Source of the DNA: Escherichia coli
GTDB taxonomy: Bacteria; Pseudomonadota; Gammaproteobacteria; Enterobacterales; Enterobacteriaceae
DNA: 3,487 nucleotides
Direction: 5' to 3' (one strand)
Assembly: GCF_003334315.1 (NCBI RefSeq)
Contig: NZ_QOWR01000104.1
Positions 1 through 3,487 of this stretch are shown piece after piece. Position 1 is the stretch's first letter; each line of letters starts with the position of its first letter. A program made the position numbers and the translations under genes. The notes beneath the pieces are model-generated. The model ran no database searches, was not told the DNA's origin, and saw only the letters and a list, made by a program, of their open reading frames with translations.

Positions 1-77
1 CTAGTCTAAAAACTAGTATTAAGACTATCACTAACTTAAGTGATACCAACTGTCTGGAGATTCAGGGGGCCAGTCTA
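1..77 (-). mobile_element. IS2-like (IS3 family) terminal inverted repeat, left end, partial; the element continues beyond the window start
   Basis: The reverse complement of 1..77 reads TAGACTGGCCCCCTGAATCTCCAGACA...TATCACTTAA...GTGATAGTCTTAATACTAGTTTTTAGACTAG. From memory this matches the IS2 end that precedes the insC/orfA start (conserved blocks GGCCCC, CCAGACA, TATCACTTAA, internal TAGACT repeat). A few central bases differ from my recalled copy, so it may be a variant or my recall may be imperfect. The terminal base is at about 77, and the element body lies to the left on the minus strand. Confidence 0.7.
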
Positions 78-490
78 GCTTCATTGATTAACGTCAACCA
101 CTCACCGCTGGCGTAGTTTCGTACGTGAGAGGTATCGCGTAATGCTTCTACCGTCTGTAACCAGATGTCGCGCACTGGGTGACCCGGAGACATTACGTCC
201 ATCACAATCAGCCTACCGCCAGGTTTCAATATCCTATTCACTTCTCGCAGTGCTGCACCAACATCATGCCAGTGATGGGCAGAATAACGGCTGATAACAA
301 TATCAAATGCGTTATCGGCAAATGGCAGACTTTCGGCATATCCCTGGCGGGTGGTGATATTTTTCAGTTGCCGGGCTTCGGCAGCTTGTGCCACGACATC
401 CAGCATGTGGGCAGATAAGTCATACGCCACCACCGCGCTCACGTTTTGCGCAGCGCCAAACGTTGGTCTGCCCTGTGGCAGACCTGACAT
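62..490 (-). CDS. yafE: Class I SAM-dependent methyltransferase (YafE-like), 3'-truncated by the IS2 insertion; likely a pseudogene
   Basis: The 142-aa ORF carries methyltransferase motifs: VVAYDLS (post-I acidic residue), FDIVIS (motif II) and LKPGGRLIV (motif III). The last ~4 codons (RLAP-stop) and the TGA stop at 62..64 are encoded inside the IS2 terminal repeat, so the native C-terminus is missing. My recollection is that intact YafE is about 207 aa. ATG at 488..490. Confidence 0.65.
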   Translation of the reverse strand: MSGLPQGRPTFGAAQNVSAVVAYDLSAHMLDVVAQAAEARQLKNITTRQGYAESLPFADNAFDIVISRYSAHHWHDVGAALREVNRILKPGGRLIVMDVMSPGHPVRDIWLQTVEALRDTSHVRNYASGEWLTLINEARLAP

Positions 491-493
491 ACC

Positions 494-1345
<852 letters not shown>

Positions 1346-1534: not shown

Positions 1535-2449
1535 ATGAAAGCCACGTCGGAAGAACTCGCCATTTTTGTTTCGGTCGTCGAAAGCGGCAGCTTTAGCCGG
1601 GCAGCGGAACAATTAGGGCAAGCAAACTCAGCGGTAAGCCGGGCGGTGAAAAAGCTGGAGATGAAACTTGGCGTTAGCCTGCTTAATCGGACCACGCGAC
1701 AACTTAGCCTGACGGAAGAAGGCGAGCGTTATTTTCGTCGCGTACAGTCAATTTTGCAGGAGATGGCAGCGGCAGAATCAGAAATTATGGAGACGCGTAA
1801 TACACCGCGTGGACTGTTACGGATCGATGCCGCAACTCCAGTGGTGCTGCACTTTCTGATGCCGTTAATTAAGCCTTTCCGTGAACGCTATCCGGAAGTC
1901 ACTTTGTCGCTAGTCTCCTCCGAAACGATTATTAATTTGATCGAAAGAAAAGTGGATGTCGCGATACGCGCTGGTACGTTAACGGATTCCAGCTTACGTG
2001 CCAGGCCGTTATTTAACAGTTATCGAAAAATTATCGCCTCCCCCGATTATATTTCCCGCTACGGGAAGCCAGAAACGATCGACGATTTAAAGCAACATAT
2101 TTGCCTGGGATTCACTGAACCCGCTTCCCTCAATACCTGGCCGATAGCCCGTAGCGATGGACAATTACATGAGGTGAAGTACGGTTTGTCATCCAATAGT
2201 GGGGAAACACTGAAACAGCTTTGCCTGAGTGGCAACGGGATTGCGTGTTTGTCCGACTACATGATCGACAAAGAAATCGCTCGCGGAGAATTGGTGGAGT
2301 TAATGGCAGATAAAGTGTTGCCAGTGGAAATGCCATTCAGTGCCGTCTATTACAGCGACCGTGCGGTAAGTACGCGCATCCGGGCTTTTATCGATTTCCT
2401 TAGCGAGCATGTAAAAACAGCTCCCGGAGGAGCTGTCAGAGAGGCTTAA
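1535..2449 (+). CDS. yafC: LysR-family transcriptional regulator (YafC-like)
   Basis: 304-aa ORF with an N-terminal helix-turn-helix typical of LysR regulators ([23 protein letters not shown]) and a C-terminal co-inducer domain. AGGAG Shine-Dalgarno at 1525..1529, 5 nt before the ATG at 1535. Divergent from yafD. Confidence 0.9.
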
Positions 2450-3249
2450 TCCCATTCAGGAGCCAGACCTTCCGGGCTAACCAGGCGGTCGTTGCAATCC
2501 AGTGCGACGATCGCTTTTTTATCTTCGGCATCAAGCTGTAAATTTTGTGCCTTAAGATTACTTTCCAGGTTTTTACGTTTAGTAGAAGAAGGAATTACTG
2601 AGTAACCTTCCCCCATAGCCCACGCCAGAATCACTTGTGCCGGAGTCGCATTGTGTTTAGCTGCGATACGAGCAATAACCTCATCTTTCAGGGCCTTACC
2701 ATACGCCAGCGTCATATAGGAAGTAATATGGATGCCGTGCTGTTTAGCCCAGGCAACCACTTTACGGTTTTGCAGATAAGGAGAGAGTTCAATCTGGTTA
2801 GTAGCGATGTTTTCAGCACCAACAGCAGCAATCGCTTTTTCCATCAACGGGATCGTGAAGTTGGAAATACCGATCTCACGCGTCAGCCCTTGTTTTTTGG
2901 CTTCCAGCAGCGCCTGCATAAACTCTTCAACAGAGACTTCATCGTTTGGTGACGGCCAGTGGATTAGCGTCAGATCAACATAATCGGTACGCAATTTTTG
3001 CAGGCTCTCTTTCAGACTTGGGATCAATTTGTCTTTGCTGAGATTTTCAATCCAGATTTTAGTGGTGATGTAGAGTTCATGACGTGGCACGCCACTTTCT
3101 GCAATCGCCTGACCTACTGCGGCTTCGTTATCATAGATTTGTGCGGTATCAATTGCGCGATAACCAAGTTCAAGCGCCGTTATCACAGATGAAATAACAA
3201 CGTCGTCTTTCAGACGGAAAGTACCTAAACCAAATGCAGGGATAGCCAT
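2446..3249 (-). CDS. dkgB: Aldo-keto reductase, 2,5-diketo-D-gluconate reductase B-like
   Basis: 267-aa ORF with aldo-keto reductase catalytic residues in the expected context: Asp/Tyr in [10 protein letters not shown], Lys in ITTKIW, His in LIHWP. Shine-Dalgarno AAGAGG about 8 nt upstream of the ATG (complement of 3247..3249). Matches my recollection of E. coli DkgB (YafB). Confidence 0.9.
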
Positions 3250-3411: not shown

Positions 3412-3487
3412 TGGCGGAACGGACGGGACTCGAACCCGCGACCCCCTGCGTGACAGGCAGGTATTCTAACCGACTGAACTACCGCTC
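3412..3487 (-). tRNA. aspU: tRNA-Asp (anticodon GTC), encoded CCA end; 5'-terminal nucleotide lies just outside the window
   Basis: The reverse complement of 3412..3487 matches the E. coli tRNA-Asp sequence as I recall it, lacking only the first G: GAGCGGTAGTTCAGTCGGTTAGAATACCTGCCTGTCACGCAGGGGGTCGCGGGTTCGAGTCCCGTCCGTTCCGCCA. The anticodon loop CTGTCAC contains GTC. The gene symbol assumes the copy that trails an rRNA operon, as in K-12. Confidence 0.9.

Follow-up and report, generated by a model that had tools for sequence, protein, structure and literature searches.

Organisation of the yafE locus

The DNA analysed here, referred to as the window, is a 3487-nt stretch from Escherichia coli that corresponds to the dkgB-yafC-yafD-yafE region. 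It contains the following features:

1–77: end of an IS2-family element (77 nt), IS3-like, interrupting yafE
62–490, minus strand: yafE-derived open reading frame (ORF), 142 codons plus stop, read from the sequence
494–1294, minus strand: yafD, 266 aa, endonuclease/exonuclease/phosphatase family, intact and upstream of the yafE remnant
1535–2449, plus strand: yafC
2446–3249, minus strand: dkgB
3412–3487, minus strand: tRNA-Asp, cut by the end of the window

The yafC and dkgB genes are convergent and overlap by 4 bp at 2446–2449, where the palindrome TTAA is common to the two stop codons. All 14 of the annotated E. coli yafD loci that were fetched encode one and the same protein (WP_001230983.1), in contrast to yafE, which bears lesions. 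An Rfam scan of the window matched the tRNA only, with no family assigned to the spacer between yafD and yafE.

The yafE-derived ORF starts ATG TCA GGT CTG CCA CAG GGC AGA CCA ACG TTT, encoding MSGLPQGRPTF, and there are 3 nt between its ATG and the yafD TAA at 494–496. Direct reading of the minus strand agrees with the initial annotation, in which this start was given and the Asp of VVAYDLS was placed at residue 24. The sequence features within and beside the ORF are:

488–490, minus strand: ATG of the yafE remnant, inside the former spacer
456–493, minus strand: first 38 nt of the former yafD-yafE spacer, matching the non-coding spacer in strains with the long yafE allele at 100% identity
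465–484, minus strand: hairpin 1, GGTCTGCC-ACAG-GGCAGACC, read as codons 3–9 (GLPQGRP)
451–460, minus strand: deletion junction TTTGGCGCTG, a hybrid of the spacer TTTGGCGCTG and the gene TTTGTCGCTG, with the G at 456 being of the K-12 type ('G-type')
419–421, minus strand: Asp24 codon (GAC) of VVAYDLS, the acidic residue ending beta-2, equivalent to D73 of the 256-aa form and retained
78–455, minus strand: surviving native yafE coding sequence, 100% identical to K-12-type strains

The ORF is thus a composite of three sources. The spacer supplies the ATG, codons 1–11 and two bases of codon 12, native yafE supplies codons 13 to approximately 139 (long-form residues 62 to approximately 188), and the last 5 codons and the stop (62–77) are read from the IS end, giving a product of 142 aa as against 207, a 3' truncation that the initial annotation had not noted.

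Full-length YafE is a 256-aa protein, as in E. coli E24377A (WP_000211710.1). The window ORF shares with it the locus 3' of yafD, the beta-2 Asp and the downstream motifs, with 94% identity over the shared 195 residues. Residues 1–60 are absent and are replaced by 11–12 spacer-derived residues, and residues from approximately 189 to 256 are lost to the IS. Position 3' of yafD and high identity are therefore as in the YafE orthologous group, but colinearity over the full length is not. The initial annotation had also stated that no upstream frame supplies the missing segment, and this is confirmed. The upstream DNA is yafD; the lost 61 residues are not encoded in the window, with a best E of 0.2 when all of its frames were searched by tblastn; and blastn of the lost 221 bp against the window gives only 8–10-mers.

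A 221-bp deletion between imperfect direct repeats

DNA alignment shows that the short yafE allele (624 bp, 207 aa) is the long allele (771 bp, 256 aa) minus 221 bp, the two being otherwise colinear. In a megablast comparison of positions 1–800 of the window with 5426 complete E. coli genomes, the match is either one 723-bp piece or two pieces spread over approximately 943 bp. The ends of the deletion lie at a pair of direct repeats, TTTGGCGCTG in the yafD-yafE spacer and TTTGTCGCTG after motif I (codons F60-V61-A62-A63). These repeats are identical at 9 of 10 positions and are embedded in a homeologous stretch, spacer against motif I codons, in which 27 of 36 columns agree. A strong hairpin adjoins them. 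The deleted length is equal to the repeat spacing (221 bp) and a single hybrid copy of the repeat is left.

The deletion takes out 39 nt at the end of the spacer and 182 nt at the start of yafE. The lost part of the spacer is hairpin 2, which carries the Shine-Dalgarno sequence, and the lost coding part (codons 1–60) comprises four N-terminal helices, beta-1, motif I (LDxGCGxGHAS) and the first turn of alpha-A. In the spacing of the repeats and in the hybrid copy that is left, yafE resembles other slipped-strand or microhomology deletions that make a pseudogene with a fortuitous start. Misalignment between the imperfect repeats within the 27/36 tract would have led to the loss of the 221 bp. 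The resemblance between the spacer and the motif I codons accounts both for a substrate for misalignment and for the motif I appearance of the translated spacer.

Two junction variants exist, which differ at the sole mismatched position of the repeat, TTTGG-CGCTG (G-type) and TTTGT-CGCTG (T-type). The T-type junction is found on at least two yafE haplotypes. A plain direct-repeat deletion pseudogene differs from yafE in this respect, and the event may have occurred more than once. The two junctions are consistent either with recurrent deletion or with a single event followed by recombination.

The YafE of strain K-12 (b0210; P30866, YAFE_ECOLI; WP_000016007.1; 207 aa) has the same G-type junction and is identical over 78–490 of the window. 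It differs in that K-12 yafE keeps its 3' end, whereas yafE in the window has the IS2-family element after codon 139.

Distribution of the alleles and the ancestral state

Of the 5426 complete E. coli genomes, 3810 carry the 221-bp segment. The G-type junction, which is that of the window and of K-12, is found in 1328 genomes and the T-type in 270, including BL21(DE3), ATCC 8739, an O145 strain and FDAARGOS_1250. Together these make up 1598 of the approximately 1616 genomes without the segment. Junctions were counted with 38-mers that are unable to seed on the long allele; a 90-nt junction query was discarded, as BLAST joined the pieces across the gap and the alleles could not be separated. 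The deletion share of approximately 30% does not represent natural populations, as the collection is rich in laboratory derivatives of K-12 and BL21. Two strains may carry further structural variants. In strain A21 only 97 of the 221 deleted bases match, and in strain HS-02 the 90-nt junction query matches in two pieces across 138 bases.

The full-length form, from residue 1 or 2, is encoded at all 80 of the outgroup loci, which come from other Escherichia, Citrobacter, Klebsiella, Raoultella, Salmonella, Enterobacter, Leclercia, Kosakonia and others. This makes the deletion the derived state. The intact ancestral state in the outgroups together with defined lesions in the short allele is as expected of a pseudogene or gene remnant.

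IS insertion and additional lesions

The junction with the IS2-family element is at 77/78, after yafE codon Ala139, and IS sequence stands where the 207-aa allele has its final 68 codons. Positions 1–77 match ends that flank genes annotated as 'IS3-like element IS2 family transposase' at 91–92% identity, with plasmid copies at up to 98.8%. This terminal match beside a transposase gene supports the IS2-family assignment of a sequence of which the window holds the end only. No complete E. coli genome among the 5426 has this insertion, and the best matches there cover 78–800 only. The exact 142-aa product is present only on five short Logan contigs of 3.4 kb or less. The window is probably a contig bounded by repeats, running from the IS to the tRNA/rrn region.

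Two of the nine short alleles examined have secondary lesions. In strain 510016 the short allele is of the T-type and has both a CAG-to-TAG nonsense codon and an IS1 insertion. Long alleles can also be damaged independently, as in EC27, where there is a 1-bp deletion within the motif I codons (GGAGCA-GGCAT).

The methyltransferase fold is incomplete

In class I methyltransferases beta-1 is the central strand of the sheet, and beta-2 ends in an acidic residue that binds the ribose of SAM through its hydroxyls. Of these features the window ORF has only the second, its D24 being the invariant D73 of the long form. Motif I, D/E-x-G-x-G-x-G after beta-1, is present in the long allele as VLDMGCGAGH at 47–57 and is absent from the window ORF. 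Thirty orthologues agree without exception at L49, D50, G52, C53, G54, G56, H57, A58 and S59, and in place of these residues the short allele has M-S-G-L-P-Q-G-R-P-T.

Profile searches locate the same defect. Pfam Methyltransf_11 aligns over model positions 5–95 of 95 on the window ORF (84 bits) as against 1–95 on the long form (95 bits), and Methyltransf_25 over 8–97 as against 1–97, so that the core profile is not covered in full. Most NCBIfam methyltransferase models align only from residues 14–20 of the short protein. No NCBIfam model reaches its cut-off for either allele and therefore no specific enzyme name can be assigned.

The AlphaFold model of the long form has a pLDDT of 79 and a pTM of 0.81. 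The models of the two forms compare as follows:

N-terminal part: long form, four helices at residues 6–40; short form, residues 1–9 with pLDDT below 50
Beta-1: long form, 47–50; short form, absent
Gly loop: long form, 51–56; short form, absent
Alpha-A: long form, 57–63; short form, not marked as helix
Beta-2: long form, 68–73; short form, 20–23, as the first strand

In these predicted models the 207-aa form lacks the complete seven-stranded sheet built around a central beta-1. Among solved structures the long form is closest to two class I SAM-dependent methyltransferases, Bacillus subtilis YcgJ (1xxl, 2glu) and B. halodurans BH2331 (1vl5), with phmmer E values of 1e-38 and 2e-31 against 1xxl and 1vl5, respectively, and Foldseek TM scores of 0.72–0.83. 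Long-form residues 45–60 align with the beta-1/GxGxG region of 1xxl (residues 22–37), for which the remnant has no counterpart. Motif comparison, the partial Pfam matches and the structural models thus all bear out the absence of beta-1 and the Gly-rich loop that had been suspected from the sequence. Profile alignment and structure prediction, which had been put forward as checks, reveal no complete SAM-binding fold within the ORF as it stands.

The N-terminus is a translated spacer hairpin

The first 38 nt, GGT ATG TCA GGT CTG CCA CAG GGC AGA CCA ACG TTT GG, open the 77-nt spacer of long-allele strains. In the long allele they are followed by a hairpin with a 13-bp stem, which carries the Shine-Dalgarno sequence AAGGA, and then by the true start, ATG ACA ACA CAA (MTTQSHHDHVEKQF...). 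The stem of hairpin 1, with consensus GGTCTGCC-N3-5-GGCAGACC, is kept in 78 of 78 Enterobacteriaceae spacers, with a variable loop. Reading of these bases as codons is not conserved. Across 81 loci the triplet at the position of the remnant ATG is ATG in 18, GTG in 30 and not a start codon in 33, and in-frame stops occur at variable spacer positions, one instance being VSGLP*, seen in 13 loci. The spacer was likewise considered as the site of a conserved small ORF or leader peptide (MSGLPQGRPTFGAVLLYSNNKRTAQ*, with its stop overlapping the yafE ATG in E24377A), which was rejected, since neither its start codon nor its frame is conserved.

'SGLPQGR' is thus a conserved G+C-rich palindrome, able to form a hairpin, that is read as protein. 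The proposal in the initial annotation that MSGLPQGRPTF is a degraded G-x-G-x-G loop is therefore wrong, as its DNA is identical to the spacer of long alleles and the hairpin has no conserved frame elsewhere. G3, G7 and F11 of the remnant are in register with G52, G56 and F60 of the long form. This register results from the chance 27/36 DNA resemblance combined with the microhomology of the deletion.

In the predicted fold of the short-allele mRNA the annotated AUG is paired at the base of hairpin 1, and the sole Shine-Dalgarno-like sequence, AAGG, sits 2 nt from this AUG. The remnant is therefore probably poorly translated.

The ancestral spacer has structure of its own, with three mutually exclusive conserved helices across 78 spacers:

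Locus L001, 2061–2137, minus strand: ancestral yafD-yafE spacer, with four conserved segments, of which hairpin 1 alone survives in the window
Hairpin 1: 99.8% of cells paired
Hairpin 2, which sequesters the yafE Shine-Dalgarno: 78% of cells paired
Alternative helix, in which the 3' arm of hairpin 1 pairs with the 5' arm of hairpin 2 ahead of a U-run: 98.4% of cells paired

The alternative helix has compensatory changes at three pairs, and slid controls give 40–62%. The ancestral spacer may be an undescribed switch acting on yafD and yafE by translational coupling or attenuation.

Annotation, sequence evolution and published biochemistry

Annotation of the short allele is inconsistent. PGAP, the NCBI annotation pipeline, labels it 'incomplete; missing N-terminus' in FDAARGOS_1250 and EC28 and keeps it as a normal CDS in K-12 and BL21, for which the RefSeq product name is class I SAM-dependent methyltransferase. 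The 207-codon frame is open in most of the 1598 genomes with a deletion junction, including K-12 and BL21.

Within E. coli the NG86 omega is approximately 0.37 for disrupted alleles and approximately 0.31 for intact long alleles, with values between genera of 0.04–0.11. Private changes are 5 nonsynonymous to 1 synonymous in the disrupted alleles and 16 to 10 in the intact alleles. The dN/dS ratio was discarded as evidence of decay, as the intact long alleles are already at approximately 0.31. Q77H, S242F and E251D were also dropped as examples of decay at conserved positions, since intact long alleles have Q77H and E251D as well. Since dN/dS does not separate disrupted from intact alleles, the view that the remnant is non-functional is based upon the missing motif and the published assay.

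That assay used the 207-aa form of YafE from MG1655, which was purified to 90%, was soluble, and did not bind SAM in Trp-fluorescence titration, in which the YafS control had a Kd of 0.68 uM for SAM (PMC12096079, NAR 2025). Offered an RNA oligonucleotide, adenosine, AMP or ATP, it methylated none of them (PMC12096079). The published absence of SAM binding is what the 221-bp deletion predicts. The authors do not mention the truncation of yafE (PMC12096079), and a literature search found no paper that notes it. In the same study m6A-seq of one replicate gave only 9 peaks for a K-12 yafE knockout, an effect that the authors hold to be non-specific (PMC12096079). This loss of peaks may reflect polarity, strain background or noise.

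Origin of the yafE ORF

The ORF in the window is very probably a 5'-deleted remnant of yafE, the gene for a 256-aa class I SAM-dependent methyltransferase. Loss of 221 bp from the ancestral gene took its start codon, Shine-Dalgarno sequence and SAM-binding loop. An ATG in the spacer is by chance in frame with the remaining yafE, leaving an ORF that is open and so annotated as a gene. In the window a second lesion, insertion of the IS2-family element, has taken the C-terminal third. The remnant appears to be a non-functional pseudogene.

It is improbable that the remnant is instead expressed by coupling to yafD and retained for some function that is SAM-independent or non-catalytic, for instance the binding of a substrate or partnership in regulation. 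Its ORF is open in many genomes, K-12 and BL21 among them, and the ATG, being 3 nt past the yafD stop, could permit translational coupling. The over-produced protein is soluble, m6A-seq of the knockout, from one replicate, shows most peaks to be gone (PMC12096079), and there is no excess of dN/dS. However, the short-allele lineages are young and have few private changes, so that little can be read into an open frame. The AUG lies within a stable predicted hairpin with no properly spaced Shine-Dalgarno sequence, short alleles have acquired extra knock-outs, and the deleted beta-1 is the central strand, leaving a short-form model that begins at beta-2. An extended version, in which ribosomes that have terminated on yafD re-initiate at the AUG in the spacer, the 207-aa protein, although blind to SAM, is retained non-catalytically and the deletion arose at least twice because loss of the catalytic N-terminus was advantageous to some E. 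coli lineages, is judged slightly less credible again.

The initial annotation had offered two explanations of its own, an unusually minimal methyltransferase or a mis-placed start. An active minimal enzyme, with a diverged G-x-G-x-G N-terminus, is very unlikely. The register of G3, G7 and F11 and a Pfam local alignment that reaches residue 4 are in agreement with it, but the codons concerned are non-coding spacer in long-allele strains and a hairpin without a conserved frame in other genera. In addition, Pro stands in place of the central Gly, beta-1 is absent, and no SAM binding was seen with purified K-12 YafE (PMC12096079). A mis-placed start, with the fold complete from a true start elsewhere, is suggested by the odd N-terminus alone and can be dismissed, as yafD fills the upstream DNA, the lost 61 residues are in no frame of the window, and downstream starts shorten the protein further.

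Implications for the study of YafE

The yafE ORF is an ordinary deletion-derived gene remnant. It also provides a clean example of a translated G+C-rich hairpin that imitates a Gly-rich motif. The yafE of K-12 and BL21 should be treated as a pseudogene, and negative biochemistry on the YafE of these strains, such as that in PMC12096079, is uninformative about the real enzyme. Studies of YafE function need the 256-aa allele, for example that of E24377A, Salmonella or Citrobacter.
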